Positions 1 to 60,726 of a DNA stretch of 64,000 bases are shown here, one piece after another (the first letter of the stretch is position 1; each line of letters begins with the position of its first letter). The DNA is from Candidatus Woesebacteria bacterium (GTDB taxonomy: Bacteria > Patescibacteriota > Microgenomatia > UBA1400 > PJMF01). Both the position numbers and the translations under genes were made by a program. Location: assembly GCA_017999345.1 (NCBI GenBank), contig JAGNLY010000001.1, positions 88,744-152,743 of the forward strand. Reading direction: 5' to 3'. The notes under the pieces were generated by a model. It saw only the letters and a program-made list of their open reading frames with translations, was not told where the DNA came from and ran no database searches.

Positions 1-273
1 GTCAGAATCGTTAAGTTCGTCAAAATTGTTGCCATATATTAATTTTGGCAATGATAATTCAATCTTTAAAGATAAACCAAAAGTACCAAAATTAGTAAAC
101 CGCTTAGTTAGTGTAAGTCTGGGTTTATAGAAACCAGCCTTGAGTTCCGACTTTGTCGGATTTTGTTTACATTGCATATAACCTCGACCACCCATATAGC
201 CAGATCCCTCAGTTAAAATTCTAGCTGATGGTTCAAATCTATCTGGATTTTGTATTGTGTAACCCTCATGCAT
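1..273 (-). CDS. Hypothetical protein, N-terminal part only. The gene starts at about 273 and runs off the left edge of the window.
   Basis: An open minus-strand frame begins with ATG (plus-strand cat at ~271-273) and continues to position 1. The translation begins MHEGYTIQNPDRFEPSARILTEGSGYMGG. No family was recognised. Confidence 0.3.
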   Translation of the reverse strand, partial: MHEGYTIQNPDRFEPSARILTEGSGYMGGRGYMQCKQNPTKSELKAGFYKPRLTLTKRFTNFGTFGLSLKIELSLPKLIYGNNFDELNDSD

Positions 274-562
274 GACTAAAACTACTGTATCTAACATAAT
301 TTTTCATTACTTCTTCATATTTATTAATTACTGCTATTTCAACTTCATTACTCGCTATTTTGTTAATTGGATAAAATATATTTATTTTTGTGTTTGCAAC
401 CGCTTTTGTTGGGTATGTAAGTCTATATCCACCTTCAGGACGAGTAAAAATACCGATTGAGCCTAAATACCAGATATCATTTATTACTAGACTCGCAAAT
501 GCTACTAAGCCGTTATTTGGTTTTATTGGTGTAATTTGAATTTCACTTATTTTTTGATTCAT
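266..562 (-). CDS. spoVG: SpoVG family protein
   Basis: ORF 266-628, trimmed to the internal Met at 562 (MNQKISEIQITPIKPNNGLVAFASLVINDIWYLGSIGIFTRPEGGYRLTYPTKA). This matches the SpoVG core (NGL.A.AS...D....I..I.......G..L..P.K). An AAGGAAA ribosome-binding site sits upstream of the 562 start, and the gene ends in TGA. Confidence 0.8.
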   Translation of the reverse strand: MNQKISEIQITPIKPNNGLVAFASLVINDIWYLGSIGIFTRPEGGYRLTYPTKAVANTKINIFYPINKIASNEVEIAVINKYEEVMKNYVRYSSFSHA

Positions 563-674
563 ATATTTTTTTCCTTTTAATACCTTCTTTGATTGCTTCA
601 GAAAGACAAGATTTATAAATTTCTTCAAGCATTCTCATCAACTCTTTTTGGTACCTCATTTGTGCTTTGTTCAT
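543..674 (-). CDS. Small hypothetical protein of about 43 aa, upstream of spoVG
   Basis: Internal Met of ORF 543-740 (MNKAQMRYQKELMRMLEEIYK...). A strong AAAGGAG ribosome-binding site lies 5 nt upstream. No homology was recognised. Confidence 0.35.
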   Translation of the reverse strand: MNKAQMRYQKELMRMLEEIYKSCLSEAIKEGIKRKKIYESKNK

Positions 675-903
675 AAACGCTCCTTTCATTAACTTTTTTA
701 TTTTCTTGATCAATATCAATAAGAATGGAAAAGAAATCACGAATTTTATTCATTTCGTGTAACGAATAAGTAGAAGATGTTTTTTGATTATTAGTGCTTA
801 TTTCTTTCACAAGCACAGTTATATGGAAAAATGATTAATTGGTCGTTTTAGTCTCACAATTTCACACAATTGCTTACTAGACCTTACTTTGTCTCACTCT
901 GTC

Positions 904-1644
904 TCACAATTTTTTGAAATTTATTGCAGGTAAGTCATGTTTTATGGAGTATTCTCTTGATATGGGGTTCATGAACATAATTTTATCTTTTGTTATAACT
1001 GGGAAAAATATTTTCTTAAGATTGCCAGTAAAACCAAGATCTCTGACTATGTGAGCTAGCCTTTTATTTATTTTGCTTCCAACTGCTTGTCCAAGTTCTT
1101 CAATTCCAATTGGTCTGCCAGCATTTGCAAGTATATATTGAAAACAATTATCATTTTCAGAATCAAAATCTGGTTTAGCAATTACTAAATGATTGAGTTT
1201 AACCTCTCTAGTATGGTCATTGTATGTAATTTTGTACAAAATGCCTGCCTGATATTCTTTATCTGCAATTTCTCGTTTGATTGCAAGGCTTTGCTTTTCC
1301 TCAACTCTTATGATTATGTCTTCTAGTGCAAAAAGATGTTTTCCCAAACCATATGATAATTCGCCAATTGGGTGTGTAAAACTAAGGGCTTCACTTTTAA
1401 TTTCTACAAAGTGAAAATAATAGTGTCTGTCAAAGTTTTGAAAAATGTATTCAGCTACAGATCTATACCATGTGTTAATTTGACTATCATAATCTTCTTT
1501 AAACTTTATTAAGTCAAAACCATCTTTAATTTTTTCAGCGTCATATTTAGAGTAGCTTTGTCTTTTGAGTAAGAACCCAGCATAAAGAAAGTTATTGAGT
1601 TCGTCAAAGCTGATATTATTAGTAACGTTGTTATAACTTATCAT
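904..1644 (-). CDS. Hypothetical protein of 246 aa, the downstream partner of the DUF2779-like nuclease
   Basis: ORF with an ATG start. It overlaps the stop of the upstream nuclease gene by 14 nt, which suggests an operon. No family was recognised. Confidence 0.55.
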   Translation of the reverse strand: MISYNNVTNNISFDELNNFLYAGFLLKRQSYSKYDAEKIKDGFDLIKFKEDYDSQINTWYRSVAEYIFQNFDRHYYFHFVEIKSEALSFTHPIGELSYGLGKHLFALEDIIIRVEEKQSLAIKREIADKEYQAGILYKITYNDHTREVKLNHLVIAKPDFDSENDNCFQYILANAGRPIGIEELGQAVGSKINKRLAHIVRDLGFTGNLKKIFFPVITKDKIMFMNPISREYSIKHDLPAINFKKL

Positions 1645-3076
1645 TATTATTTTTTACTGTTTCACTAAATTTTCTATAAATCTCAACCATAGCCAAAGTA
1701 TCCAACTCACAATAATCTAGAAGATCTTTTGCAGTTTCATCAGCAGAAGTTCCAGCATTAGTTATCATATTCCACCAAGTAATCATCGCTTGGTCGCCTT
1801 TATTGACTGTAAGGTTCTTGTAAGAAAGGTTTGGCACCATAACAGGAAGGACATTTTTAATTGACCAAATTCCTCTAAACAATGGATGAACATAAAAACC
1901 TTCTTTAATTGGGTCAGCTAGGTCATACATCCTTTCATTTATATCCAATAAAAAGTCACTAAACTCAGGATGAATTTCTGCAAGTTCTTTGTTTCTGGTT
2001 GCTTCAAAGGTTTTATTCCAAACAAGTACTGAGCCAGTATTTCCAATGTCTCTTTTAAGCTGTTTTAAGAGGTTGGAACCTGGTTCGTTTGTATTTGTCG
2101 CTAGATATTCAGTATGGGTAAGTTCAGCGTTAGGATGCTCAAGTTTGTGAAGCGAATACTGAAACACCATTTGTTGTTGTGGGTGGTATCCGTCATGTAG
2201 GGGAATCGCGGAATTATATGTTTCGTAGTCCAAGAAGTACAAAGGATATGCAAGGTTTTCTAGTTCATGTTGAATGGCAGAATGGTCAATAATTGGTTCA
2301 TTTGTTTTTGCAACTTCTTTGACTAGATTTTGTTTGTAAGAAAGTTTGAAGTTATTTGGAATATCTTGGGCTTGAGTTACACCCATTTCAAGCAACTGTT
2401 TCTTTTTCTTTTTAGTTAGGTTTGGAATATCAAAAATAGAAAAAGTAGGTTTATCTTTATGACATAAGCTTTTGCATCGGCAGTTTTTGGGGTTGTAACA
2501 GGCTTCTATATTGAAGTGATTCTCACTATTAAGCACCAGTAAAGCTCTCTCTCGTTCAATATCCACATCTTGCAAAAGTTCTTTGACTTTATCTGTAATA
2601 TCTTCGGCAACAAATAGTGAATCAATGTTTAATGCACCAAAGCGAGTGTACTCAGCACTCAAGTGCAATATGTGAACTTTATTAATTTTGATGTGTTTAT
2701 TAAGAACTAGATACTGAAATGTCGCATCGTATAGGTTTGTTTTATCAACAGATGTTGAGCTTTTGATTTCGTAGATGTCGTAGGAGTTAGTTTCAGTATT
2801 GTGAATGAGGGCGTCGGCTTTAGCTTCGTAGTTTTTGTCGTTGTAAGTTGATTGCCAGATGAGTTTGAATTGAGGATTGTTGTGAACAAAGTTTTGTAAG
2901 TACTCTTTGGCAAGTTTTTCTACTTTGTATCCTTCTTGAAGAAGGTGTTGATCGTAAACAGTCAGTGGTTTTTCAAATTTATTGTTGTCATCTGCCCAAA
3001 GGTGCATTGGAGCATCAAGGTAGGTTAGGAAGTTTGATTTAGTTAGGTTTTTCATTACGTCTTTATTTTGAACCAT
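1631..3076 (-). CDS. Two-domain nuclease. The N-terminal part is a PD-(D/E)xK Cas4/RecB-like nuclease with a 4-Cys cluster. The C-terminal part is a DUF2779-like domain, probably a DEDD/RNase-H-fold exonuclease.
   Basis: Motifs YDIYEIKSS (D..E.K) and CYNPKNCRCKSLCH (a Cas4/AddB-like Cys cluster) are present. The C-terminal half contains FLDYETY and YCELDTLAMVEIY, typical of DUF2779. The start was placed at the first ATG (MVQNK...), whereas the ORF track begins at a GTG at 3109. Confidence 0.65.
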   Translation of the reverse strand: MVQNKDVMKNLTKSNFLTYLDAPMHLWADDNNKFEKPLTVYDQHLLQEGYKVEKLAKEYLQNFVHNNPQFKLIWQSTYNDKNYEAKADALIHNTETNSYDIYEIKSSTSVDKTNLYDATFQYLVLNKHIKINKVHILHLSAEYTRFGALNIDSLFVAEDITDKVKELLQDVDIERERALLVLNSENHFNIEACYNPKNCRCKSLCHKDKPTFSIFDIPNLTKKKKKQLLEMGVTQAQDIPNNFKLSYKQNLVKEVAKTNEPIIDHSAIQHELENLAYPLYFLDYETYNSAIPLHDGYHPQQQMVFQYSLHKLEHPNAELTHTEYLATNTNEPGSNLLKQLKRDIGNTGSVLVWNKTFEATRNKELAEIHPEFSDFLLDINERMYDLADPIKEGFYVHPLFRGIWSIKNVLPVMVPNLSYKNLTVNKGDQAMITWWNMITNAGTSADETAKDLLDYCELDTLAMVEIYRKFSETVKNNNDKL

Positions 3077-3095
3077 TATATAATGAACTTGAGAA

Positions 3096-3722
3096 ATGAG
3101 TATGTTCACAAATATATATCAGAAGATTTTTGCAATAAAAAAATATTGGTCTACTATTAGTTATTTTGATAGTTTCGAAAGGTATCATGTTATTTTTGAG
3201 CGTAAATCTTTTTTAGATTGTAAGATTCGTTTATGTAAACATGAGGAATACGTCAAATATGTCATGAGTACGATAGGTGAACATACAGATCCCAGACTAT
3301 TAATTAGAGATGTCTTGACGAAATCAAAGGGTTGCGTCTTCATTGTATTTGAGGCACCAGAAGGATATGTTCAGTTTTGGATTGCACAAGGTAGATTACA
3401 GGTGTGTTGGTTTTTAGATATATACGACAAAGATGAGTGGAAAAAAGATAAAAAAATAATTATAAGCATACTAAGAAAATTGAAAGTACCACGATGCATG
3501 AATGCAAGGAATACTAACAGTTTTGAAACCTACTATGCTTTTTTTAAGCTTGATAAAGATTCTGTCAGCAATGAGGATGGATTAAATGCTACAGCAGATG
3601 TCCCTATTTTTCGAGCAGATTTTAATAACGACAATGAACTCGCATCGCACTTTGTGATTCAAGTATTAGAACAGGTGTACAACTTGAAAACTATCGAGGA
3701 CTTAAGTGTCGATTTAAATTAG
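3096..3722 (+). CDS. Hypothetical protein of 208 aa
   Basis: ORF with no recognised domain. Its 5' end overlaps the divergent nuclease gene, so the true start may be the later Met (MSTIGEHTD, about 3264). Confidence 0.4.
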   Translation: MSMFTNIYQKIFAIKKYWSTISYFDSFERYHVIFERKSFLDCKIRLCKHEEYVKYVMSTIGEHTDPRLLIRDVLTKSKGCVFIVFEAPEGYVQFWIAQGRLQVCWFLDIYDKDEWKKDKKIIISILRKLKVPRCMNARNTNSFETYYAFFKLDKDSVSNEDGLNATADVPIFRADFNNDNELASHFVIQVLEQVYNLKTIEDLSVDLN

Positions 3723-3809
3723 CTTTTTTGATATATAGTATTACAAAAAATAGGTGTTATCAGGCTATAGTATAATCGTGATTACAAGAAACGTTTAGAA
3801 AAAGGAAAA

Positions 3810-4799
3810 ATGCCACACATTTTAATCAATGGGAAAAAGTTTGAGAAAAAAGATTTTGAACTTGAAAGTGATTTTGAGGATGCTGTAATTGAGAATAGCA
3901 CCAATCTATTCGGTCAAGATGCTATTTATATAGATGTCAAAAAATTAATTGGTACAGATAAGAAGTACCACAAAGGCATTCCAGACGGTTATTTAATAGA
4001 TTTTGTAGATTTGCAACAACCTCAACTGTATTTTGTTGAAAACGAGTTATCCGCTCATGATATTTATGGTCATATTACTGAGCAAATCGGTAGATTTAGT
4101 GCAATGACTATAAACTCCACAAGAGAGGTTAAAGATAAGCTTCTTGCAGTAATTAGAGAAGATGTAAAATTAATGAATCATTTACAGCAAAGAATTGAAA
4201 AGTCACCGTTTCATAATATAGATAACCTAATGGACTTCTTGACAGAAAAAAACCAAATAAAAATTGTGGTTGTTGTTGATGAAGAAACCAATGATCTTAA
4301 TTCAACCCTAAATATCTTTAGACAAAGACCTGATGTTGTTACACTTCAAAGGTATGAATACCAAAATGAAGTTGTTTATTTTTATCAACCAATGAGAGAA
4401 GAAATTGAAAACCAACAAATAATGGCAAAAGAAAATATTGTTAGAGAATTTGACACAGTTGTTTGTCCTGCATTTGAAGATGGTTTTAAAAAAGCATATC
4501 TTGAGCAAAGTGCCTGGTGGTCAATTAGATTGTCACAAAAAGCAATAGAGCAACTAAAATATTTAGCTATTTATGAGAAATCGCCAGTAGCAGAAATAAA
4601 ACATATAGCAGAGATTGACAGAATTGAGCCTTATAAAGATTCTGGTAAGTACATTTTATATCTTAAAAATAAAAGAAAAATTAACCCAGTAAAGCTCGGT
4701 AAGAATGCAAAGGCTGGCACAGCACCTCAAGGTTCAAGATATACAACTCTAGAGAAGTTGAGTAGTGTGAGTAAGTTGAATGAATTGTGGGGAAGTTAA
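3810..4799 (+). CDS. Hypothetical protein of 329 aa with a possible PD-(D/E)xK-type nuclease core
   Basis: A TATAAT box and an AAAAAGGAAAAATG ribosome-binding site lie upstream. The motif IPDGYLIDF...YFVENELS resembles a PD-(D/E)xK nuclease core. The assignment is tentative. Confidence 0.55.
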   Translation: MPHILINGKKFEKKDFELESDFEDAVIENSTNLFGQDAIYIDVKKLIGTDKKYHKGIPDGYLIDFVDLQQPQLYFVENELSAHDIYGHITEQIGRFSAMTINSTREVKDKLLAVIREDVKLMNHLQQRIEKSPFHNIDNLMDFLTEKNQIKIVVVVDEETNDLNSTLNIFRQRPDVVTLQRYEYQNEVVYFYQPMREEIENQQIMAKENIVREFDTVVCPAFEDGFKKAYLEQSAWWSIRLSQKAIEQLKYLAIYEKSPVAEIKHIAEIDRIEPYKDSGKYILYLKNKRKINPVKLGKNAKAGTAPQGSRYTTLEKLSSVSKLNELWGS

Positions 4800-4805
4800 A
4801 TCATA

Positions 4806-5393
4806 ATGATAGATAAAGAACTGTACCTAAAAATTTCAAAATCTTACGGTGAGTTTGCAAGTTGGGCAATTTGGGCAAAAGTAGGTGTTAAGCCAAAATC
4901 AAATATAGGTAACACAACTATTTTTGATTTGGAAAGTAATCCAGATTTATTAAATGAACTGAACCCAAACATTATTATGGTTGGGTTGAATTTTTCAAGA
5001 ATTGGAAGAAAAGAATGCTTCGCAAATTTTCATGATAGTAGACCTCAGGGACAAGATTATAAAATTAGGTATGCTTTCGAGGATACCAAGTTTTATGGTG
5101 CTTATATGACAGACATAATTAAAGATTTTGAAGAAAAAGTCTCAGGGAAAGTCATGTCATATTTAAGGAACAATGAAGAATTTGAACAACAAAATATCAA
5201 ATTATTCAAAGAAGAGTTGATTTCCTTAAATACTAAAAATCCTTTGATTATTGCGTTCGGAAACGATGTATATAAAATCTTACAAAAGCATTTTGTGGGT
5301 CAGTATCAGATTATTAAGATTCCTCACTATAGTAAGCATATTAGTAAAGAAGATTACAGAGCTGAAGTTGAAAAGTTATTGTCAGCTTACTAA
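4806..5393 (+). CDS. Uracil-DNA-glycosylase-superfamily-like protein (putative)
   Basis: IIMVGLNFS (UDG motif A-like G.NP) and IPHYSK (motif B-like HPS) are at the expected spacing. The gene is followed by an A1-type repeat. Confidence 0.5.
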   Translation: MIDKELYLKISKSYGEFASWAIWAKVGVKPKSNIGNTTIFDLESNPDLLNELNPNIIMVGLNFSRIGRKECFANFHDSRPQGQDYKIRYAFEDTKFYGAYMTDIIKDFEEKVSGKVMSYLRNNEEFEQQNIKLFKEELISLNTKNPLIIAFGNDVYKILQKHFVGQYQIIKIPHYSKHISKEDYRAEVEKLLSAY

Positions 5394-5459
5394 CTTTTTC
5401 TATTTTTAAATTTGTAAGTTATTATTTTGTGTCTTAATTAGTAATCTTGCAAATTTTTC

Positions 5460-5541
5460 AGCAAATCCATTAGTTTCATCCTTACTAATCCCCAGTAAAT
5501 CCTCTTTATACCCGTTCCGTAACGAGTCCAATAAGGGGAGC
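5460..5541 (+). repeat. Intergenic repeat, module A1 (long form), ending GGGGAGC. No module B follows it.
   Basis: aaatccattagtttcatccttactaatccccagtaaatcctctttatacccgttccgtaacgagtccaataaggggagc. The same element recurs at ~7338 and ~16045. Confidence 0.8.
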
Positions 5542-6579: not shown

Positions 6580-7284
6580 ATGTCTATTCCTTCAGAACTA
6601 ATAAAAACTAATTCTAAATATCAAGTTAAAGACGATATTTTCATTTTTACTCAAACAGAAGACCTTAGAAAAGATAATAAAAAATATTCTGGTTTTTACA
6701 ATGTAATCGCTAATCTATATGATATAGGTTCCAAAGTTTTTTTTTGGTTTCATGGTGGTGAAATAAAGGCAAGAAAAGAGTTTCTTGAAGAACTAAAAAT
6801 TGTATCTGGAGCTAAAGTATTAGAGGTATCTATTGGAACAGGGACGAACATTTCAATGTTACCTAAAGACGCTGATTACTTTGGAGTTGATATTTCATAT
6901 GGGATGCTAAAAAAATGCCAACAGAACTTGAACAAAATGGGTAGACAATCACTCTTGTTCCAAGCTGAAGCAGAGCACTTACCGTTTAATGATAATACAT
7001 TTGACTCAGTATTTCATGTGGGTGGCGTCAACTACTTTAATGAAAAAGGCAAAGCATTGGCTGAAATGGTTCGTGTATCTAAGTCTGGTACCCATCTCAC
7101 CATTGTTGATGAAACGGACAAATTTTTTGAGACACTTAGTTGGATACCATTTTTGAAAAATGCATTTCCCACAGGAAAAGCTACCAAACCACCTACTGAA
7201 TTATTACCTAGTGGTATGAAAAACATTCAAGTCAGTGAAATCGTGAATGGGAATTATTGGAGACTGACTTTCCAGAAGCCCTAG
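6580..7284 (+). CDS. Class I SAM-dependent methyltransferase (UbiE/COQ5-like)
   Basis: Motif I is VLEVSIGTGTN, followed by FGVDISYGML and FDSVFHVGGVNYF. The start was placed at ATG 6580, just downstream of TGATATACT (an extended -10). Confidence 0.8.
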   Translation: MSIPSELIKTNSKYQVKDDIFIFTQTEDLRKDNKKYSGFYNVIANLYDIGSKVFFWFHGGEIKARKEFLEELKIVSGAKVLEVSIGTGTNISMLPKDADYFGVDISYGMLKKCQQNLNKMGRQSLLFQAEAEHLPFNDNTFDSVFHVGGVNYFNEKGKALAEMVRVSKSGTHLTIVDETDKFFETLSWIPFLKNAFPTGKATKPPTELLPSGMKNIQVSEIVNGNYWRLTFQKP

Positions 7285-7337
7285 TTAATTTTTCGAAGAT
7301 TTATATTTTTTTAGATTTGACTAACTGACAACTGAAC

Positions 7338-7458
7338 AAATTGTTTACTAAATCTATTAACTTCATCTTTATTTATCCCTAACAAATGCTCTTTATATCC
7401 GTTCCGTAACGAGTCCAATAGGGGGAGCAATAACCAAATTAGATCTATATACCAATCT
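7338..7458 (+). repeat. Intergenic repeat: module A1 followed by a degenerate module B
   Basis: ...ctctttatatccgttccgtaacgagtccaatagggggagc then aataaccaaattagatctatataccaatct. Confidence 0.8.
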
Positions 7459-7660
7459 AAATTTAACTATCACACACAACATTTCAATATAAAATTGAAT
7501 AGAAATTCACTATCTTTGTTGTGTTTTTATTGTATCCTAAAATAGATTAAGAAATTTGATAATTAATCTATTTATAATATATATTTATTATTTGTGTTCG
7601 GATTCATTTTAAGTTATGCTTTCTCATGAAGAGACATAAAAAAATATTTAAAAATAAGTT

Positions 7661-8500
7661 ATGAATCAAAATGAATCGCCATCGGAAATAATTGAAAAAC
7701 TTACTGAAAGTAATAAAGAATTTCGTTCAAATACCTTACCATCGATTGATGATTTACATACTATGGCATTGATGACTCAAGACAAAGGTCTCGAATTGGG
7801 AGTTTCACTTTATACAGCATCCAAAGGAGAAATAAAAGGATCTGCATTTAATGTCGGAACCGAAAGAAGCATCTACGAGCCCACACCCCCACGTGAATTA
7901 AGAGGAAAGATTTCATCGGGTGTTTTTATTCATTGTCATCCAATTTCCGAAGATGAGAGAGTTCCTGACGGAAAATCACTTCATATACTTCCGAGTGGAA
8001 CACAGCCATTCGAAGGAGATTTTGAAGCAAGCTATATGTCTAGAGTTGTTGCAGGATACTTAAATGTTGCGAGCGAATATGGACTAACAATGATGGTAGG
8101 AATAGAAGGAATTGCAAGAGAAGATGACATTACTAGAAAAATGAGAGAAAAACTTGGTCGTTCTGATTTGGCAAGAGAACGCACATGGAAAGTTCTTAGT
8201 GGAGAACAAGGTGGTGTTGCTATGGTTGGCGATGAGTTTAAAGTAGCGGTAGACGATAAGTTTTCAATTAATGAGGATGTTGTTTTATTAAGTAACACTC
8301 AAGAGCTTGGAGTTAGATACTTTCTTCATATATCTTGGGATAAACTTAAAGAGTTGGAAAAAAGCTATGGCTCATTAGAAAATCTCTGTTTTGGCGATGG
8401 ACTTGAGTCTTTGCTTCAAGAACTAAATATTGAAGTACAACACGAAAAAAATTTGGGTTCTGCGGCTGTTCAAGTTTATAAGATGCCAAAAGAGAGATAG
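7661..8500 (+). CDS. Hypothetical protein of 279 aa
   Basis: ORF bounded by repeats on both sides. No family was recognised. Confidence 0.6.
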   Translation: MNQNESPSEIIEKLTESNKEFRSNTLPSIDDLHTMALMTQDKGLELGVSLYTASKGEIKGSAFNVGTERSIYEPTPPRELRGKISSGVFIHCHPISEDERVPDGKSLHILPSGTQPFEGDFEASYMSRVVAGYLNVASEYGLTMMVGIEGIAREDDITRKMREKLGRSDLARERTWKVLSGEQGGVAMVGDEFKVAVDDKFSINEDVVLLSNTQELGVRYFLHISWDKLKELEKSYGSLENLCFGDGLESLLQELNIEVQHEKNLGSAAVQVYKMPKER

Positions 8501-8524: not shown

Positions 8525-8611
8525 GAGATAGTTAGCAATCCTTCCTCATAACCGTTCCTTAACGCATCCGTCAGGGGGAGCTTTTTCCAAAATAGATCTA
8601 TATATCAATCT
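8525..8611 (+). repeat. Intergenic repeat: module A2 followed by a degenerate module B
   Basis: aatccttcctcataaccgttccttaacgcatccgtcagggggagc then tttttccaaaatagatctatatatcaatct. Confidence 0.75.
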
Positions 8612-8650
8612 TTTTAAAATATTATGTATAAATTATACAGTAGGAGTGCG

Positions 8651-9118
8651 TTAACTAATTGATGTAAATATGGATTTTTCTAGGTATTGCTGTGCTTGAG
8701 CAACTAATCCATTTAGATAATCAGTTATCTCACTTGCCAAATGACCCTCAGTTGCCTTTGTGATTAGTAACTTACAGATCTGTGTTGCATAATAACCATT
8801 TGGATCTTTATCTTTATCGCATAGGTTTACTCTTGCAAGTTCAAATTGTTCTACTTCTTCCAAATTACCTTTATCACTTGATAAATAACCTATTAACCAA
8901 TATTCTTTGTCTGTTTCATTAGATTCTAGTCCAGCACTAACTCTAGTTTCAGTATTGAGTTCGTCATTTCTTGCTACTTGATTGAAAATTACATCAATTG
9001 TTGGCATGAGTAAAACATCTGCCGTTTCTGGATGTGCATTTTCTCCCGATATTAGTTCAGCAGAAGTGCAGATGGAATTTGAAACAACTGAATCATAGCC
9101 TTTGAGTATCATAAACAT
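8651..9118 (-). CDS. Hypothetical protein of about 155 aa. This is the only inverted gene inside the repeat-bounded array.
   Basis: ORF track 8651-9184, trimmed to the internal Met because the N-terminal poly-Ile extension is a translated AT-rich leader. The module B promoter on the opposite strand points into this gene. Confidence 0.55.
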   Translation of the reverse strand: MFMILKGYDSVVSNSICTSAELISGENAHPETADVLLMPTIDVIFNQVARNDELNTETRVSAGLESNETDKEYWLIGYLSSDKGNLEEVEQFELARVNLCDKDKDPNGYYATQICKLLITKATEGHLASEITDYLNGLVAQAQQYLEKSIFTSIS

Positions 9119-9162
9119 AAATATATCATATTTTATTCTAATGATAATAATAATTATTAGAT

Positions 9163-9257
9163 AAACAAGTAATTTTCCACCCACTTCCTAGTTCGAGTAA
9201 CAACCTGTTGGGGGAGCTTTTAAATTATAGGCTTATTTACGCCTATATACCAATCCT
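9163..9257 (+). repeat. Intergenic repeat: module A3 followed by a full-length module B
   Basis: aagtaattttccacccacttcctagttcgagtaacaacctgttgggggagc then ttttaaattataggcttatttacgcctatataccaatcc. The B module is identical to the copy at 16132-16170. Confidence 0.85.
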
Positions 9258-9311
9258 TTTTAATTTATATATGATCATCAGTAATTTTTAGTTATTTGAT
9301 ATAATTACTGA

Positions 9312-10529
9312 GTGATAAGTAAAGAACTACAAGAAATTTTGGATACAAGGATAGAGTCAGAGGCAACTTTAAATACGCTTTTTGCCGTTATCAGAAGTGG
9401 TTTGTTGGGTGAGATTAATGCTACTCAAAAATTAAAATTATCTGCTAGATTTGAGGAAGCCTCAATTGTTTTAAGAGAGCTCAGCGAATCGCCTAAAGAA
9501 GAAATTGCACAAACACTTCAACATGAGCAAGATAATTTAAAAGAATTACCACCATTGAATATACAATTACCGCAAATTTCTTATGGAAAGAGAATGCCTT
9601 TGGGAAGAAAGGCATATGAATATACCTTTGGTAATAGTAAAAATGCATCATCATATAAATTTTCAGATAATCCAGCTTATTATTTTACAATGGGTCAGCA
9701 GAATGACGTCAATGCAAGAGAATCTGAATTTTATAGAAGAGAAGTATTAAGGTCAAACATACCTAGGGCTATTATTCTTGATACCAGTTATATAACCGAA
9801 AGAGGCGTAAGTTTAATTAGGTTGTATAGGATGCATGATGGTTTATTTGAAAATGTCCAAGAAGGAGTTTTTGATAATTCTCGTCCATTCAAACAGGCCG
9901 ATGTTACGGTTTTGAGTCCAAAAGGAAAATTTGAGGCTGAAAATAATGAAATAATTATTGCCTTATCAAAAGGATATTCAGTATTTCCAAAAATGGCTTT
10001 TGGAGAAAGATTCACGTTTGATAGAGGACAAGAAATTTATAATGATAATTTGCTATCAGCTGACAAAACTAATTTTGATAATCGAGAGGCATTACTATGG
10101 AAAAATAATAAATTAAATTCTGATAAAGTAGTTGAAATAATAGCAAAAAGCTTACTTTACTTAAAAAAAGGAATGTCAATAATAATTTTTTCAGACCTAT
10201 TGGAGATAAGTAATCTTGATGAAATTGATAAGACAATTATATTTGAAATGATATATTTTCTTGCATTAGGAATGGGAATTACAGAGTCTCTTGGCTTCCA
10301 ATCGGACCTTTCTGCGAGATCGCCTCAGAAAGTAAATTTTTATAATTCAAATGATCGACCTGAAGGAATTTTTCATAAGCCTAAAGAAGTTGTTTGGATA
10401 AATAAACAGCCAGAAGAAAAAACTCAAGAAGAGATTGCGCTCGTAGAAAAAATAAACGACACATTTAGGTCTGGAGGAAGTTGGATAGAGAACTATGAAA
10501 AGTGGAAAGAAGCATTTCTAAATAAGTAA
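9312..10529 (+). CDS. Hypothetical protein of 405 aa
   Basis: ORF with a GTG start 9 nt after TGATATAAT (an extended -10). Its TAA stop is the first triplet of the following A3 repeat. Confidence 0.6.
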   Translation: MISKELQEILDTRIESEATLNTLFAVIRSGLLGEINATQKLKLSARFEEASIVLRELSESPKEEIAQTLQHEQDNLKELPPLNIQLPQISYGKRMPLGRKAYEYTFGNSKNASSYKFSDNPAYYFTMGQQNDVNARESEFYRREVLRSNIPRAIILDTSYITERGVSLIRLYRMHDGLFENVQEGVFDNSRPFKQADVTVLSPKGKFEAENNEIIIALSKGYSVFPKMAFGERFTFDRGQEIYNDNLLSADKTNFDNREALLWKNNKLNSDKVVEIIAKSLLYLKKGMSIIIFSDLLEISNLDEIDKTIIFEMIYFLALGMGITESLGFQSDLSARSPQKVNFYNSNDRPEGIFHKPKEVVWINKQPEEKTQEEIALVEKINDTFRSGGSWIENYEKWKEAFLNK

Positions 10530-10604
10530 TTTTCCACCCACTTCCTAGTTCGAGTAACAACCTGTTGGGGGAGCAAATACTAAATTATAGCCATAAACCA
10601 ATCT
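10521..10604 (+). repeat. Intergenic repeat: module A3 followed by a degenerate module B
   Basis: aagtaattttccacccacttcctagttcgagtaacaacctgttgggggagc then aaatactaaattatagccataaaccaatct. Confidence 0.8.
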
Positions 10605-10971
10605 TTTTTAATATCAATTTTTTTTAAACAGTTGTAATTATTTATTATAATTTTATACTGATGTTAGCGTTAATTAATTCTATATATGAATCTAATTGCA
10701 TTTTTTTACTTATATTGGAAACAGATAATTGCTGTAATTTTGTTTGTTTTACTACCATTTATTTGGCTGTCATTTCAATGGGGACTTATTATTTATTTAA
10801 TTGAAACTAAACTTAGACCTAAGTTAAAGAAAAAGAATTAGAGGTTATTAAAAATGTTGTCAACTCTCTTTTTAAGAAAATTATAAGTACAGTTGAAGTT
10901 GAATAATTGTTTTCTAGATATTCTCAGTCTGTTTCAAAGAAAATTTGTTAACATGTTATAATCTGTTTCAT

Positions 10972-11880: not shown

Positions 11881-14800
11881 ATGTTAGCAAAACATAAGTT
11901 TTTCAGATTTTTGTTAGCTTTTTGGTTAATTATGTCGCAAGGCATAACAGCTTTGGCATCTGGTGAGCTTTCAAGCTACAGGTTGCCTTACTATGGACCA
12001 GCAGAGATGGTCTATGGAAGTTCATATCATTCAGGCCTTTCATTCCAAGCAAGAGATTTTGATATTGGAGTGGATACAGGTGTATATGCTGACGAGGAAG
12101 GATATGTACTATTTGCTGGCTGGCGAAATGATGGCTTTGGATATACTCTTGTGTTGATGCACGATGATGGTTACATGAGTCTGTTTGGACACTTATCTAG
12201 AGCCACATACGACCAAGGTGATACTGTCAATGATGAGGTCTTTTTTGCAGTAAGTGAAGGAGAAAATGTTGCTAAAGGACAATTGATTGCTTTTACTGGC
12301 AATTCTGGATCGAATGGCAGCCCAGCTCATCTGCATTATGAGGTTAGATACAATAATGATTTCAATGGACAGACACATCAACAAATTCAAGGAACTGCAT
12401 CGCTAAATAACTTTTGGTTGGCAGATCAGGCAGTGAGTCTTGACTCTATACCTGATTTAGATGCAAACAACTACTCAAATGATATGGTTGGTCCGCCTGT
12501 TTCAGATCCTGCATGCGGAGATAGGTCATATTCTGGCATAGATTTTTTTGATGATGAATATTGCCAGAATCAAAGCCTGTGGTATTCAAATTCCACGGGT
12601 TCACAAAGTGTTTCTGCACAAAATGTTGAATCAATTTTTGTTGGCTCAGGATGGTCCGCATACATTACTGATGGAGTCAATGTAGGCATTTGTGCAAACA
12701 GAAATCTATGGGATTTGGGAAAAGATTTTTACCCAAATGGCAGTAATATAAAACACAACATTGCATTTGTTCAGGTTTACAATGATTCTACTTGCAATGG
12801 TATGGTTGAGCCTTATAACCCAGATATATCTGCCAGTGGAGGTACTGGAGGCGGTGGAACTGCGAGTGGTTATGTAGAGATCTTCCAATCCACTAACTTT
12901 GGTGGAACAAAATTGGGAGACTACTCAATTGGTACTCACAGCTTTTCTGTAAATACCCTAATGTATTCTTTCAGAATGAAAGATGGGGCTAACAGTTTTG
13001 TTGTGAAGGACGACACTGGCAACAACCAATGCTTTGACTCAGATGTTTCGAATATGCAAGATAATTCAGATTTTTGGAACAAAACGGTTGAAGTTGAGGT
13101 TTTCACAAGCAATGTTTGTGGAAGCGTTAACGGTGAAGTTATAGTTTACAGCGCTACAAACTATACTGGAAATGTGGTAGGAACTTACACGGCAGGCAAT
13201 ACATACACCTTCCCTGTAAATACTCTCATGTTTTCTTTTGATACAAATGGCGCTGGTAGTTTTGTCGTAACTGCTCCTGATGGACGTCGTCAATGTTTTA
13301 ACTCTGACGTCCCAAACATGCAAGATTATTCTGAATACTGGAGAGAAACGATAAAACTTGAAGTAAATACGAACGACTACTGTCCTCCTGTTGGCAGTCC
13401 TGCTCCTGTAGTAGGGAGTGGGAATGGTCTTTGGAGAAATGAATTTAGAATCCTTTGGGAGGAAGTAGATATTCCAGATTTCACTTACATTGCCCCATTA
13501 TCTTGGGGTCCTGTAAACACAGTAACAAGAGAAGGTCACTCTAGAAGTGATCAATTTGGTATGCAGTTTGAAGGTTGTATAGAGCTTCCAGCTACTGATA
13601 CATATACTTTCTATCTTCTGTCTGACGATGGGAGTAGGCTGTACATTGATAATCAGCTGGTAGTTAATAATGATGGTCGACACTCTGCAACTGAAGTAAG
13701 TAGTTCTGTTGTCAAACAATCAGGACAATATGATTTCAAGGTTGATTACTATGAAGATGATGGTGGTGAAGAGCTGTTCTTACAAGTCTCGACACCAACA
13801 ATGACAAAACAACCTGTTCCTGATAGTTGGTATAGCTATGGCTTGGCCTGTACTGGTGTTCAAGTGGGAACCCCACTAAATACTTCCAGTTGGGCATATA
13901 GCCAAACCCTCACAATCGATTCAGATTTTGTGGGTGAAGATTTAATAAACTTTCCTGCGCTTCTGTCTGATGGAGTTTTCGTAGATGATGTTTACGTAAA
14001 CGCCTTGGATAATGGTGCAGATCTTAGATTTACTTCAGATGCTCTTGGAACTAATGAACTAGCTTTCGAAGTAGTGAGTTGGAACCAATCTGCCAAAACC
14101 AGTGAAGTTTGGGTCAATATACCCAGTGTGTCGGCTTCAGTCGATACATCAATATACGTTTGGTATGGCAATACATCTGCTGTGGCATATGCCAGTGGCG
14201 AAACGTATGGTAGCCAAAATGTGTGGGGTGACTACGCGTTGGTTATGCATATGAGCCAATATGGTAAAGCAAGTTTTGATTCAACCAGCAACTACAACAA
14301 TGCTCGGTCTACTATGAGCATTGCAAGTAATGTTGGAAAGGTGGGTTCGGCGTCTGATTTTGAGGCTGATGGTAGTCAATTTATGACCATTATGCCTAAT
14401 AACAATACGCTGGATTTACCGACTTACACTATTCAAGCATGGGCTTTCAACGAGTCCTTTGCTTATACATATCCATCGATTGTTAATAACAGAAGTGCAT
14501 CAAGTTCGAATGGTAACTATGTTGTTATGTTCCATGGTGATATCGGATACAAACCGCATTCACAACATTGGACGGGATCAGCATGGTCATCTGTTCCATG
14601 GGGAACTAGTGCTTCGCCACAAACTTGGTACATGGTTAACGCAGTATACGATGGTTCATTGCACAAAATGTCTGTTGATGGCGATTCTTTTGTCATTGGC
14701 AGCAGTCAAGTCGCACCACAGCTTAACGATAATCCAATCTTGATTGGCAACTATACGTCCAACTACTTTGATGGACTTATTGATGAGTTGCGCATGAGTG

Positions 14801-16026: not shown

Positions 16027-16044
16027 TTGAAACTGTTACAAAAT

Positions 16045-16170
16045 TGTATGTTAAATTCTTTAACCTCTGACATAGTGATCTCTAACAAATGCTCTTTATA
16101 TCCGTTCCGTAATGAGTCCAATAGGGGGAGCTTTTAAATTATAGGCTTATTTACGCCTATATACCAATCC
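16045..16170 (+). repeat. Intergenic repeat: module A1 (long form) followed by a full-length module B
   Basis: ctctaacaaatgctctttatatccgttccgtaatgagtccaatagggggagc then ttttaaattataggcttatttacgcctatataccaatcc. Confidence 0.85.
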
Positions 16171-16276
16171 TCTTTTAATATAATGAAAAACTACTTAACT
16201 TTAAAAATTAAGTATCTTTATTTGTCAGTAAATTTTTATGTTACATAAAAAATAAAAGTAATGGTATTCTTTATTT

Positions 16277-18409: not shown

Positions 18410-18481
18410 TTAGTTTTTTAACAATATTAAAATTTTTCTGAAAACAAAAATCCCATAACAAATTTCTCAACATTTTTCTTC

Positions 18482-18559
18482 CAGATCTGATGAGTTCGAG
18501 TAACAACCTGTTGGGGGAGCTTTAAAATTATAGGCTTATTTATGCCTATATACCAATCT
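18482..18559 (+). repeat. Intergenic repeat: module A4 (a 5'-truncated relative of A3) followed by a full-length module B
   Basis: ctgatgagttcgagtaacaacctgttgggggagc then tttaaaattataggcttatttatgcctatataccaatct. Confidence 0.85.
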
Positions 18560-18568
18560 TTTTTTACA

Positions 18569-18634
18569 TATACACCCCCGACAGGACACTTTAGCCTTGG
18601 ACCCGAACAGAGTAAACTATTTGATATAATATTT
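18569..18634 (+). promoter_or_regulatory. Module C upstream element ending in the extended -10 TGATATAAT. It probably produces a leaderless transcript for gene 18637.
   Basis: cccccgacaggacactttagccttggacccgaacagagtaaactatttgatataat, with the ATG 8 nt downstream. Confidence 0.55.
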
Positions 18635-18636
18635 AG

Positions 18637-19128
18637 ATGAACAAACTTACTCTTGAAGCAGCAAAAGTACTTAAAAAAATTCTGTATATAAATATTGCAT
18701 CGATTACTCCAGAAGGTGAGCCATGGAATACACCAGTATATTGCGCATATGATTCAAAGTTAAATTACTATTGGTTATCATGGAAAGATAACCAACATTC
18801 TATAAATGTTAGAAATAATCCCAAAGTTTTTATAACTTCTTATGATTCGACAGTTCCCGCAAGCACAGGTTTTGGCGTGTATCTAAAAGGAGAAGCAAAA
18901 GAATTAAAAAATCCAAAAGATATGTTGATTGCGATAACAGAAGTTTATAAAAGAGAAAAAAGAAAACCAAGACAGGTTGCTGAATTTCTCAAAAAGTTTC
19001 CTAGAAGAATATACAAGTTTACACCAAATCAAGTGTGGGTTAATGGAGACGCTAAAATAGATGGAAACTTTATTGATGTTCGTACAGAACTTAATCTAGA
19101 TGAACTTAGGGAAGCTATAAAGAAATAA
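18637..19128 (+). CDS. Pyridoxamine 5'-phosphate oxidase-like (PNPOx-fold) FMN-binding family protein
   Basis: The N-terminal pattern LYINIASITPEGEPWNTPVYCAYD...NPKVFI is typical of PNPOx-like general stress proteins. A paralogous fold is encoded at 41927. Confidence 0.65.
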   Translation: MNKLTLEAAKVLKKILYINIASITPEGEPWNTPVYCAYDSKLNYYWLSWKDNQHSINVRNNPKVFITSYDSTVPASTGFGVYLKGEAKELKNPKDMLIAITEVYKREKRKPRQVAEFLKKFPRRIYKFTPNQVWVNGDAKIDGNFIDVRTELNLDELREAIKK

Positions 19129-19139
19129 AGGTTTTTGCT

Positions 19140-19574
19140 GTGAATTTAATTATAACTAAATCAACTGAGAAAGAAGTCGAAGCCTTTGAAGCTCAATCTT
19201 GGAGTGCTGAGGATCTAAAACATTATAGAAGAGAAGTTTCTTGGGATGAATGGAATCCAACCAAATTTATTTTCAAAGCAGAACTAGATAACGAGATTGC
19301 TGGCATTATTGGAGGAAATATTACCGTTGGCGTTACTTTCATAGAAAGAATAATTGTTTCTGAATCATTTAGGAAAATGGGTATCGGTAAACAACTTATA
19401 CAAAAAGTTGAAGATTATGCAAAAGAGCTGAATTCTCATAAAATATATCTTTATACTGGAAAAGATTGGTCTTCAAACAAATTTTATGAACAAATTGGTT
19501 TTAAAAATACTGGCGAACTTGAAAATCACTATTTAAATGTTGATTTTGTAATTTACACTAAATTCTTGAAATAA
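19140..19574 (+). CDS. GNAT family N-acetyltransferase
   Basis: The acetyl-CoA binding region is RKMGIGKQLIQKVEDYAKE (the R/Q-x-x-G-x-G/A motif). A GTG start lies 11 nt after the upstream stop, and the pair probably forms an operon with 18637. Confidence 0.8.
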   Translation: MNLIITKSTEKEVEAFEAQSWSAEDLKHYRREVSWDEWNPTKFIFKAELDNEIAGIIGGNITVGVTFIERIIVSESFRKMGIGKQLIQKVEDYAKELNSHKIYLYTGKDWSSNKFYEQIGFKNTGELENHYLNVDFVIYTKFLK

Positions 19575-19626
19575 TAAGTAATTTTCCACCCACTTCCTAG
19601 TTCGAGTAACACCCCAGCGGGGGAGC
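19571..19626 (+). repeat. Intergenic repeat, module A3 variant. Its 5' end overlaps the tandem TAA stops of the GNAT gene, and it has no module B.
   Basis: taagtaattttccacccacttcctagttcgagtaacaccccagcgggggagc. Confidence 0.8.
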
Positions 19627-19639
19627 CACATTTTTTACT

Positions 19640-19695
19640 CGAAAAGAATTTCATTATCCCAAACAGGACTCGAACTCCTGTTATAATTCATTTTA
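19640..19695 (+). promoter_or_regulatory. Module C (short form) ending in the extended -10 TGTTATAAT, upstream of gene 19698
   Basis: cccaaacaggactcgaactcctgttataat, with the ATG 10 nt downstream. Confidence 0.5.
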
Positions 19696-19697
19696 AT

Positions 19698-20291
19698 ATG
19701 AGAAAAATTATCCTAGTAGAGTTTATGACAATCGATGGTGTGATGCAGGCGCCCGGTGGATCCAAAGAAGATACTGCAGAAGGCTTCAAGTATGGTGGGT
19801 GGATGGGTCCGCATTTTGATGAAGTTGGTGGGAAAGAAATGGAATTTCAAATGAAAGAGACAGCTGCATTACTCATAGGACGCAAAACATATGATATTTT
19901 TTCTGAATATTGGCCAGACCATTCAGAACCTTGGCCCCAAGTAAATAGGATTGCCAAATATGTTGTATCCAAAACCTTAAAAAACCCAACTTGGGAAAAT
20001 ACGGAAGTGATAAGAGATGTTAAAGAGTTAAAAGAACTAAAAAATTCAATCGGTCCAGACCTACAAGTGTACGGAAGTAGTAACCTTGTGCAGACTTTAT
20101 TAGCAAATGATCTGGTAGACGAACTTTGGCTCAAAATCTTTCCAATTACTCTTGGAACTGGAAAGCGGTTGTTTGAAAAAGGTACAATACCTGCTGCTTT
20201 CAAGCTCTCAAAGTCTAAGGTTACCCCAAGCGGTGTCATCATTGTCTATTATCAACGTGCAGGGGAAGTCAAAACCGAAGATATTGAATAA
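19698..20291 (+). CDS. Dihydrofolate reductase family protein (RibD C-terminal domain / YwjB-like)
   Basis: MRKIILVEFMTIDGVMQAPGG...LLIGRKTYDIF...WP is a typical RibD_C / DHFR-like reductase signature. Confidence 0.8.
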   Translation: MRKIILVEFMTIDGVMQAPGGSKEDTAEGFKYGGWMGPHFDEVGGKEMEFQMKETAALLIGRKTYDIFSEYWPDHSEPWPQVNRIAKYVVSKTLKNPTWENTEVIRDVKELKELKNSIGPDLQVYGSSNLVQTLLANDLVDELWLKIFPITLGTGKRLFEKGTIPAAFKLSKSKVTPSGVIIVYYQRAGEVKTEDIE

Positions 20292-20369: not shown

Positions 20370-20439
20370 GCACTTCCTGATTTCCTCTATGACGGGGAGC
20401 ATTTAAATTAAAATCTTATTTATTCCTATATACAAATCT
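20370..20439 (+). repeat. Intergenic repeat: module A5 (short form) followed by a degenerate module B
   Basis: cacttcctgatttcctctatgacggggagc then atttaaattaaaatcttatttattcctatatacaaatct. Confidence 0.7.
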
Positions 20440-20448
20440 TTTTTCAAT

Positions 20449-20515
20449 ATATATACCCCGATAGGACAGGTTTGCTCGAGACTCGAACTGAGATAAAAAT
20501 GTCTGCTATAATTTT
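20449..20515 (+). promoter_or_regulatory. Module C ending in the extended -10 TGCTATAAT, upstream of gene 20531/20564
   Basis: ataccccgataggacaggtttgctcgagactcgaactgagataaaaatgtctgctataat. Confidence 0.5.
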
Positions 20516-21769: not shown

Positions 21770-21946
21770 ATCGTCATAAGCAATTATTGTTACGTGATTT
21801 GTAAATTCTTTAATAGCATCTTTATAATATTTTTCAGTAAAATTCTTTGTTCCCATCAAGATTGTATAACTTTCATTTTTTAAATTCATAACTGGATTTT
21901 AGCATAGTGGACTACTACTTTTAATATTTTGCTATAATCAACTCCT

Positions 21947-23483: not shown

Positions 23484-23560
23484 TTATATAAATCAATGCT
23501 TCTAGTATTGCAAGTTCACTTATCCATATAGGAAAGGTTTGCCAGGGACTCTAATTAATT
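23484..23560 (+). repeat. Degenerate module B 3' part followed by a module C-like element upstream of gene 23628
   Basis: ttatataaatcaatgcttct (compare ctatataccaatct of module B), then ccatataggaaaggtttgccagggactc (compare ccccgataggacaggtttgctcgagactc of module C). Confidence 0.5.
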
Positions 23561-24518: not shown

Positions 24519-24712
24519 ATTGATTTTTTTCCATTTTGTATCAACCTTTTTTCAACTTGATAAAATATTTCAATGAACAAACTTACTTTTGATTATAATT
24601 ATTTTTGAGTGTAATATCATAGTATGAGTCATTTACTAAGAGTAAATAGTATTAATTAAGTAGCTGACATAAGTCGGTTTTTTTGTAGTTAAAATAAAGG
24701 AGATGTAAATAT

Positions 24713-60724: not shown

Positions 60725-60726
60725 GA

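Follow-up and report, generated by a model that had tools for sequence, protein, structure and literature searches.

Large serine recombinases (LSRs), such as CcrAB and CcrC, insert the staphylococcal cassette chromosome (SCC, including SCCmec) at the 3′ terminus of the protein-coding gene rlmH (orfX). These cassettes span 20–60 kb, their serial insertion yields composite arrays with short direct repeats, and pseudo-SCC units that lack a recombinase occur. Integrons are arrays of one- and two-gene cassettes in a single orientation, with the integrase IntI, imperfectly palindromic attC sites carrying R″ and R′ elements, and promoterless cassettes. In archaeal viruses of the SSV1 type, the attachment site attP lies inside the gene for a tyrosine recombinase, and integration splits this gene into two large parts. 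Here we describe an array of small gene units in a 64,000-nucleotide stretch of DNA from a Candidatus Woesebacteria bacterium, hereafter called the window. The intergenic repeat that recurs in this array, module A, is likely to be the right-hand boundary of small integrated gene cassettes that stand in tandem downstream of a tRNA-Asn(GUU) gene in this Patescibacteria-type bacterium, and the cassettes were probably inserted next to the tRNA by an LSR.

The most similar arrays described are the ssrA islands of Dehalococcoides, which lie in tandem downstream of a small stable-RNA gene and are bounded by the 3′ end of that gene or a short direct repeat (PMC3146451). Their integration module is located on the reverse strand by the attachment site attL, where the 3′ end of a CcrB-like LSR gene always overlaps attL (PMC3146451). 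The LSR C-terminus depends on the neighbouring sequence, and many islands have no integration module and are thought to be mobilized in cis by accretion (PMC3146451). Tyrosine recombinases are used by the tycheposons of Prochlorococcus, which integrate at tRNA 3′ ends and are flanked by partial tRNA copies (bioRxiv 10.1101/2020.12.28.424599). Islander-type islands are tRNA-targeting and carry tyrosine integrases (PMC4383910).

The locus reported here has the tested features of the serine-recombinase tandem-island type and fails the tests for integrons and for tyrosine-integrase islands. It differs in five respects, namely its tRNA-Asn target, 8-nt core, integron-sized units with their own promoters, conserved B/C palindrome, and host from the candidate phyla radiation (CPR). 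We found no description of this system, nor anything specific on CPR integrons, in a literature search of incomplete coverage.

Module A ends in the 3′ end of tRNA-Asn

A preliminary description of positions 9163–9218 (TAAACAAGTAATTTTCCACCCACTTCCTAGTTCGAGTAACAACCTGTTGGGGGAGCT) had noted a recurring core and a T-loop-like 9-mer, both of which are real and exceed shuffle expectation. This segment is one A3-type copy of module A and ends in GGGGGAGC, an exact 8-mer that occurs seven times in the window (∼33% G+C) against 0.38 expected, a count reached by none of 100 shuffles. All seven are on the + strand between 7.4 and 19.6 kb. As GGGG(G)AGC, the core terminates nine same-strand repeats (ending at 5541, 7428, 8581, 9217, 10574, 16131, 18520, 19626 and 20400), all of them intergenic, + strand copies of module A that divide unrelated and mostly + strand genes. 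One 15-kb run holds all copies, in a single orientation, and the remaining 40 kb of the window are free of them.

When up to one mismatch is allowed, the 9-mer GTTCGAGTC is present 12 times where 4.6 are expected (1 of 100 shuffles), and the seven occurrences within the array are not independent because they are parts of repeated modules. Four are on the + strand in A3 and A4 copies (9191, 10548, 18494 and 19600), and three are on the − strand inside module C (18600, 19667 and 20480). Spacing of motifs of this type is fixed at −26 in the forward orientation, compared with −21 in the tRNA, and is +81 or +42 in the reverse orientation. For example, the A3 copy at 9162–9217 carries GTTCGAGTA 26 nt from its end, while the tRNA counterpart GTTCGAATC is located at 21 nt.

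Related loci (designated L numbers) were collected by scanning one genome per species, as well as metagenomes, for the pattern core-N(14–27)-CTATATAYCAATC. The composite element was found only in contigs of Patescibacteria, or CPR bacteria (L004/L014, L006, L010, L012, L018, L020, L021, L024 and L025), and viral contigs scanned for the junction pattern and for the LSR yielded neither. L004/L014 derive from JACKFW010000001.1 (isolate HK-STAS-PATE-15), whose 33–34% G+C and shared elements indicate a Patescibacteria genome; its title, “Pseudomonadales bacterium”, is probably a mislabel.

The arrays of L006 and L012 have, in place of their first “module A”, a real tRNA gene split by a group I intron (RF00028, 113–115 bits), which causes ARAGORN to miss it. 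Read by hand, this tRNA-Asn is TCCCCTG-TA-GCTC...GAGC-A-GGAAG-CUGU-intron-UAA-CTTCA-AGGTC-GTAGG-TTCGAAT-CCTAC-CGGGGGA-G-C, and the intact gene at the head of both arrays ends in ...GGTTCGAATCCTACCGGGGGAGC. The intron (1236–1475 in L006 and 3921–4166 in L012) interrupts the anticodon loop, seemingly at the junction of U35 with U36; a literature search on CPR tRNA introns gave nothing specific, beyond one paper noting that group I introns are possible in CPR tRNAs. The tRNA genes of L020 and L033 are intronless and are called tRNA-Asn (gtt) by ARAGORN. As with the ssrA islands, a single conserved gene whose 3′ end serves as target heads the array, in this case tRNA-Asn(GUU) in L006, L012 and L033. 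In L006 and L012 an rpoD-like sigma-70 gene is located upstream of this tRNA, directly after which the array begins.

GGGGGAGC therefore corresponds to the last eight encoded bases of tRNA-Asn(GUU), comprising the acceptor 3′ strand (C)GGGGGA, the discriminator G73 and C74. In L012 the match extends to an exact 18-nt repeat of the tRNA-Asn 3′ end. The same locus carries a gene-less 174-nt unit twice (4214–4387 and ∼7190–7366), with a terminator-like hairpin, ∼130 nt and the exact 18-nt tRNA-Asn copy; the unit is also listed for L021.

ARAGORN finds no tRNA gene in the 64-kb window, and the tRNA-Asn 3′ end is located 5.6 kb to its left. The earlier proposal that the repeats are remnants of tRNA-3′-end-derived attachment (att) sites left by serial site-specific integration is supported, with corrections. 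The genome does hold a matching tRNA, but it is tRNA-Asn(GUU), which fits the end of module A (...CCTACCGGGGGAGC) and not primarily the C2 sequence that had been put forward. A recombinase does adjoin the tRNA, but it is an LSR instead of a classical tyrosine integrase; no tyrosine recombinase (Phage_integrase) is present among 30 open reading frames (ORFs) tested from the window and 10 ORFs of related loci.

Compared with the ssrA islands, the target is tRNA-Asn and not tmRNA, and the repeat is 8 nt (up to 18 nt) and not 20 bp. Integration at a tRNA 3′ end, partial tRNA sequences between neighbours and degenerate remnants deeper in the island are shared with tycheposons and Islander islands. 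There, however, the tRNA duplication is ∼40 nt and the enzyme is a tyrosine recombinase, whereas here 8–18 nt are repeated and a serine recombinase lies by the tRNA.

A serine recombinase gene runs across the core

A same-sample contig retrieved by exact-protein look-up with ORF 904–1644 (L032) overlaps window positions 1–3030 with no mismatches and extends 5,643 nt leftward. Its far end reads GGTCGTAGGTTCGAATCCTACCGGGGGAGC followed by CAAGTTTGAC, the 3′ end of tRNA-Asn. The A1 module at 5450–5541 is predicted to be the right end of the ∼11.2-kb recombinase element that begins there. In addition to the genes listed in Table 1, this element encodes an HNH_2 protein, two DNA methyltransferases, an HTH_17 excisionase-family protein (Pfam/NCBIfam) and a 389-aa ORF. 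The methyltransferases (one C5, one Dam-like of the MethyltransfD12 family) and the HNH_2 nuclease, on the opposite strand within L032 3890–8656, are probably restriction-modification or defence cargo.

By NCBIfam the LSR is distantly XisF/CcrA/CcrB-like, with all three scores far below the equivalog cut-offs (60–73 bits against 700–900 for CcrA and CcrB), and a sequence search of the PDB gave no match. Its last codons, ...NCADSQTW-LP-R-stop, run across the core into the tRNA. L033, from a different genome (42% GC), has the same order of SpoVG, ORF of unknown function, HTH_17 and LSR, and its 499-aa LSR ends in ...SSNW-LP-R-stop with a 15-nt overlap with tRNA-Asn. At the other end of the L033 element, an A1-type module is joined to what is left of an older LSR gene, its C-terminal part, and L033 thus holds two tandem elements.

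L032 and L033 therefore match the ssrA islands in that their LSR gene lies by attL, is read from the opposite strand and overlaps the att site at its 3′ end, although no DsiA-like second recombinase or pseudo-tRNA-Gly was seen. An LSR, the 3′ end of a conserved gene, serial arrays and recombinase-less units are also found in SCCmec (SCC is also discussed in PMC3146451). In contrast to the LSR gene described here, ccr genes do not span the att site, and the CcrA/CcrB scores above are far below the cut-offs.

All A modules start, when read on the minus strand, with the codons for LP (CTC CCC), after which the frame, which is that of the recombinase, stays open. That of A1 at 5450–5541 encodes LPLLDSLRNGYKEDLLGISKDETNGFAEKFARLLIKTQNNNLQI and then a stop, in frame with the LSR C-terminus in the predicted circular form. 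Database proteins exist in which an LSR C-terminus is joined to an A1-type tail (P0001, ...GQRW-LPLLDSFHNGF...; P0006, ...RQSW-LPLLDSLRNGYKE...), and other LSR proteins continue into the tRNA (LPR-stop, LPREDSNLEP) or into different tRNAs read as their reverse complement (W-GG...DSNP...). The same behaviour, with many different tails, is seen in a second LSR subtype (...PLRPIW) of WWE3, Pacebacteria and Blackburnbacteria. LSR homologues of these groups end in ...W and then LPR or reverse-complement tRNA translations such as (V)DSNH/DSNP. In L024 the second subtype reads in frame into an A3 module as LPQQVVTRTRRWVENYIFL and a stop. As in SSV1, attP would lie within the recombinase gene and integration would alter the protein, but here only a C-terminal tail of 0–45 residues changes.

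Conservation patterns differ among the module types. In all 10 of 10 A1 copies, the minus-strand frame runs for 30 codons or more without a stop (∼0.11 per shuffle), and A1 differences are distributed 132/37/151 over the three codon positions (codons 1–13), with the second position the most conserved. The corresponding counts for A3 (74/96/117) carry no coding signature, and A4 is likewise without coding support; A3 conservation is best read as that of a putative DNA site. We also considered the minus-strand “LP...” ORFs as the remnant of a target protein gene, and rejected this origin, as they are read-through tails of the recombinase gene.

Cassette boundaries fall at the core

The left and right sides of the core vary separately. 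Among 35 distinct junctions, the A types (tRNA, A1, A2, A3, A4 and A5) combine freely with the right-hand types (long B+C, short B, B2+C2, the LSR end P′ and others). This independent assortment indicates that a unit consists of B, C, a TGnTATAAT promoter, one or two genes and module A ending in GGGGGAGC. Units measure 0.6–5.6 kb, carry 1–2 genes and, as in the ssrA islands, are bounded by a target-end repeat (GGGG(G)AGC at the nine junctions, with weak similarity upstream). Array cargo includes genes for metal efflux, methyltransferase, GNAT, PNPOx-like, RibD_C-like and giant M23/LamG-like proteins, together with many unknowns.

An extended −10 box (TGnTATAAT) is located 6–12 nt before the starts of cassette genes (9295–9312, 18622–18637, 19679–19698 and 20504–20525). 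It reads TGATATAAT in the promoter of the PNPOx+GNAT unit at 18622–18630 and TGCTATAAT in the promoter following the module C at 20453–20492. From this spacing, the cassette mRNAs look leaderless or near-leaderless, with no Shine-Dalgarno sequence. One unit of the related L012 array is an IS200-type Y1 transposase gene (7550–7963).

The PNPOx+GNAT unit (18521–19626) is 89% identical over 1,116 nt to positions 1515–2627 of L006. In the window it is the seventh core-bounded unit (the eighth if the recombinase element is included) and its left neighbour is an A4 module, whereas in L006 it is the first unit and its left neighbour is the true tRNA. Recurrence of one unit in different positions or genomes is a feature of tandem serine-recombinase islands of the ssrA and SCC type. 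Homology between the two PNPOx+GNAT copies ends at the core on both sides, with the last 7 nt before GGGGG on the right already differing.

This last difference suggests breakpoints inside module A, and would fit an alternative in which the junctions are fossil att sites that are now shuffled by homologous recombination between A and B-C sequences after DNA uptake. A3 and B-C are 80–93% identical between units and genomes, which provides enough length for RecA-type exchange, and most units have no recombinase. However, A and B types recombine exactly at the core, and an intact LSR gene (frames of 487 and 499 aa) accompanied by an excisionase-like gene is present at the tRNA both in the genome of the window and in L033. 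Moreover, the tandem A1/P′ junction of L033 indicates repeated site-specific insertion. We therefore consider exchange between fossil sites unlikely.

Being short, intergenic, partly palindromic and tRNA-like, module A might otherwise be a dispersed tRNA-derived repeat, comparable to REP (repetitive extragenic palindromic), MITE (miniature inverted-repeat transposable) or SINE (short interspersed) elements, which spreads by transposition and is unrelated to cassette boundaries. The single 15-kb run and orientation, the real tRNA in the position of module A at array heads, the independent assortment of A and B types, and the absence of copies from viral contigs make such an origin extremely improbable.

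Cassette arrays in one orientation, palindromic sites, and the presence of the same cassette at different positions across genomes also recall integrons. Unlike integrons, however, the locus has no IntI, its unit boundary falls in the middle of the palindrome, its cassettes have their own promoters, and a tRNA gene heads the array. The attC elements R″ (RYYYAAC) and R′ (GTTRRRY) were absent on inspection of the 35 junctions, and the integron assignment was rejected. Relative to the ssrA islands, the distinguishing features are integron-sized units with their own extended −10 promoter, a B hairpin and inverted C at junctions, and a CPR host.

Junctions toward the right end of the array are decayed (∼21801–21853, 23484–23560 and 24551–24592), which fits an order with newer units near the tRNA and older ones distal to it. 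In local alignments, 21801–21853 gives P∼0.002 against the A1 of L012 and P∼0.07 against the A1 copies of the window.

Table 1. Coordinates of the array modules, cassettes and recombinase element (window positions unless a contig is named)
Feature	Coordinates	Strand	Remarks
Recombinase element, right-hand 5.4 kb	1..5449	.	element ∼11.2 kb, starts 5,613 nt left, directly after tRNA-Asn 3′ end
SpoVG-like	266–628	−	Pfam
246-aa ORF	904–1644	−	
DUF2779	1631–3109	−	Pfam
Three cargo ORFs	3096–5393	+	
LSR, 487 aa	L032 7193–8656	opposite strand	abuts tRNA-Asn 3′ end; Pfam Resolvase+Recombinase+Zn_ribbon_recom
Module A1	5450..5541	+	predicted right end of recombinase element, attR-type junction; core GGGGAGC ends 5541
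Module A1 + short B (7429–7458)	7337..7458	+	core ends 7428; junction of czcD/methyltransferase unit and 279-aa ORF unit
Module A2 + short B	8543..8611	+	A2 is a diverged A1; core ends 8581
Module A3 (copy in preliminary description)	9162..9217	+	putative right-end att arm of 636-nt unit 8582–9217; ends GGGGGAGC
Long module B	9218..9269	+	hairpin TATAGGC-N8-GCCTATA; without module C
Module A3 + short B variant	10519..10614	+	core ends 10574; A3 98% identical to 9162–9217
Module A1 + long B	16040..16183	+	core ends 16131
Module A4 (core ends 18520), B (18521–18566), C (18572–18612), promoter (18622–18630)	18442..18630	+	
Complete cassette	18521..19626	+	B, C, promoter, PNPOx-like (18637–19128), GNAT (19140–19574), A3 with core; Pfam
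Short B2/C2 variant	19627..19690	+	C2 at 19657–19681; −10 box comes next
Module A5, B, C (20453–20492), promoter	20373..20512	+	core GGGGAGC ends 20400
Probable decayed A1 distal region, core lost	21801..21853	+	local alignment
Decayed B-C junction, without A or core: TATATAAATCAAT...TATCCATATAGGAAAGGTTTGCCAGGGACTCTAAT	23484..23560	+	by eye against B-C consensus
Fragment of PNPOx cassette promoter + first codons, distal array relic	24551..24592	+	

Modules B and C

The sequence of the long B module at 9218–9269 recurs in L006 and L020, where the intact tRNA-Asn directly precedes it. B and C come immediately after the tRNA in both loci, and the tRNA/B-C junction of L020, with no further core within 6.3 kb, would fit an empty site. 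B-C therefore seems to be the natural flank of the tRNA.

The minus strand of module C resembles a tRNA-Asn 3′ end, of which C would be an inverted copy. Its short form, GTTCGAGTCCTATCGGGAT, compares with GTTCGAATCCTACCGGGGG of the tRNA, and its long form has a 13–15-nt insert. The C module at 18572–18612 is such an inverted tRNA-end-like arm and contains GACCCGAAC, and the one at 20453–20492 contains GACTCGAAC. In the B2/C2 variant (19627–19690), TTACTCGAA is the inverted repeat of TTCGAGTAA in A3, and the minus strand of C2 (19657–19681) reads ACAGGAGTTCGAGTCCTGTTTGGGA. The T-loop-like 9-mer does occur in different modules and orientations, as had been reported, and module C explains this as a third tRNA-end-like copy in inverted orientation.

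Module A, or the tRNA end, and module C thus form imperfect inverted repeats around B, which is itself a hairpin (TATAGGC-N8-GCCTATA). As single-stranded DNA, A-B-C folds into an imperfect hairpin of ∼130 nt (z of −3 to −4 against shuffles), in which 84% of cells in the A:C and B helices pair, compared with 27–47% when the partners are slid. This fold, the single orientation of all units and the Y1 transposase in the L012 array raise the alternative that A-B-C is a folded single-strand site, similar to attC or to the sites of IS200/IS605 elements, that is acted on by another enzyme (an integron-type tyrosine recombinase or a Y1 HUH transposase) while the LSR is a mere neighbour. Several observations speak against such a site. 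Neither a tyrosine recombinase nor a Y1 transposase is encoded by the 30 window ORFs tested, unit boundaries separate A from B and so divide the palindrome at its middle instead of marking its end, and many junctions have no C or only a short B. The complementarity of the A:C and B helices is real, but their covariation amounts to double-sided changes at four pairs, which is not above shuffles (204/500), and the cassettes have their own promoters, unlike those of integrons. Taken together, these points render a single-strand site improbable.

The minus strand of B also carries a promoter-like sequence (TTGGTA-18 nt-TATAAT at 9253–9224, 16167–16138 and 18556–18527) that points into module A or, at array heads, into the tRNA. 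The site near 9217 faces the sole minus-strand cassette ORF in its vicinity (8651–9121), and the counts of promoter-like sequences in the scan equal shuffle expectation, with no enrichment.

RNA structure in module A

The preliminary description had drawn stems between 5′ pyrimidine tracts and GGGGGAG, each followed in most copies by a U-rich run, and had considered a structured 3′ untranslated region (UTR), a terminator or a folded site. The quoted tracts and CAGGAGTTCGAGTCCTGTTTGGGA are present in the sequence, and the stems appear in most minimum-energy folds, but their energies match those of dinucleotide shuffles (z-scores between −1.1 and +0.9 in each of the nine A copies and on the reverse strand). 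Covariation, the check that had been proposed, yields no scorable support because the purine (3′) side never varies. The T-rich run is found after the core in only about 4–5 of the nine copies, so this part of the description holds for some copies and not for others. A terminator scan passes one copy of nine (20382–20399), with terminator-like counts equal to shuffle expectation. An Rfam search of the window at the gathering threshold returned only a S-adenosylmethionine (SAM) riboswitch, and positions 1–26000 gave no tRNA-clan or other relevant match at E≤5.

If module A were a + strand structured RNA, whether a 3′ UTR stem, a tRNA-like minihelix or an intrinsic terminator with a U run after the GGGGGAG pairing, then the predicted pairing, the one copy that passes the terminator scan and the fact that module A in several units starts at the stop codon of the gene before it would be accounted for. 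However, loops of 20–30 nt and U runs in 4–5 of nine copies make for a poor terminator, and the 8-mer is accounted for exactly by the tRNA-Asn end. With folds at shuffle level, few terminators, no Rfam match and no covariation, we reject structured RNA as the main explanation and regard it as highly improbable.

Other features of the window

A SAM-I riboswitch (RF00162, 48.8 bits) on the − strand at 38516–38612 lies directly upstream of metK (S-adenosylmethionine synthetase; 37545–38522, − strand). The 1,333-aa secreted M23/LamG-like protein gene has an internal duplication of ∼1 kb with 84–87% identity (14206–14594 versus 15217–15602), and ORFs 20525–21769 and 23628–24518 have a paralogous N-terminal segment in common (20886–21036 versus 23680–23830). 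Between two genes, at 60658–60731, a 37-nt unit is duplicated in tandem and in perfect register, with 95% identity. Same-sample Logan contigs L030 and L032 break at window positions 3001–3030 and 7408, the latter inside a repeated A1 module. The break at ∼3000 separates the minus-strand genes of the recombinase element from its plus-strand genes and might stem from variation between strains.

Proposed mechanism

In the model that we favour, of cassettes integrated at the tRNA-Asn end, GGGGGAGC would mark the point at or near which recombination joins units, and B and C would be the sequence that natively follows the tRNA. The LSR, encoded on the opposite strand, would end in ...W-LP-R-stop beside the tRNA and would read into module A when its element is circular or lies behind another unit. 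In serine-integrase terms, the tRNA/B junction would be attB, A/P′ would be attP, tRNA/P′ would be attL, and the A/B junctions of the window would be attR-like. The LSR may insert elements at the tRNA end such that older units are pushed distally, and units without a recombinase may travel along or stay in place if attL is paired with a different A/B junction at excision, a process that would resemble accretion.

Several observations weigh against this model or limit it. No circular form, empty site from the same population or enzyme activity has been seen. One recombinase gene would have to serve at least nine units, and any step that creates a B-C-gene-A unit is hypothetical. L032 ends within the tRNA and thus covers only its 3′ part, and an A3 tail beside an LSR was found only once (L024). 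Upstream of the core, local alignments of module A with the tRNA give P values of 0.05–0.13 for A3 and A4 and ∼0.75 for A1; since these are not individually significant, the tRNA origin was based on the core, positional equivalence and the 18-nt repeat of L012. The role of module C and of the A:C palindrome has no explanation in the model. Finally, the dyad symmetry around the core that is expected of serine-integrase att sites is not evident, with 9–11 of 26 matches against a null mean of 10.9, as at random positions, and this line of support was dropped.

A more far-reaching version of the model is speculative, and we think it doubtful that it holds in full. It proposes that Patescibacteria carry a cassette platform of integron scale that is run by an LSR, with the tRNA-Asn 3′ end serving as attI and with cassettes individually excised, reinserted and swapped through their own promoter and attR-like site. 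The C-terminal tail of the recombinase (LPR-stop when integrated, as opposed to a tail of 20–45 residues encoded by module A when circular or behind a unit) would switch the enzyme between integrating and excising as a built-in control, and the A-B-C palindrome would be part of the site logic.

CPR bacteria (Patescibacteria) have tiny genomes, and their acquisition of accessory genes is little known. The locus shows a compact route for such acquisition, with units common to different CPR genomes and a serine recombinase gene that straddles its own attachment site. It also carries a warning for annotation, because intron-bearing tRNA genes can be missed by tRNA finders and the origin of the adjoining repeats is then easily overlooked. 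The array extends the paradigm of the Dehalococcoides islands and SCCmec to tRNA targets and integron-sized cargo and, if active, would supply genetics with a natural landing pad and its integrase in organisms for which tools are currently lacking.

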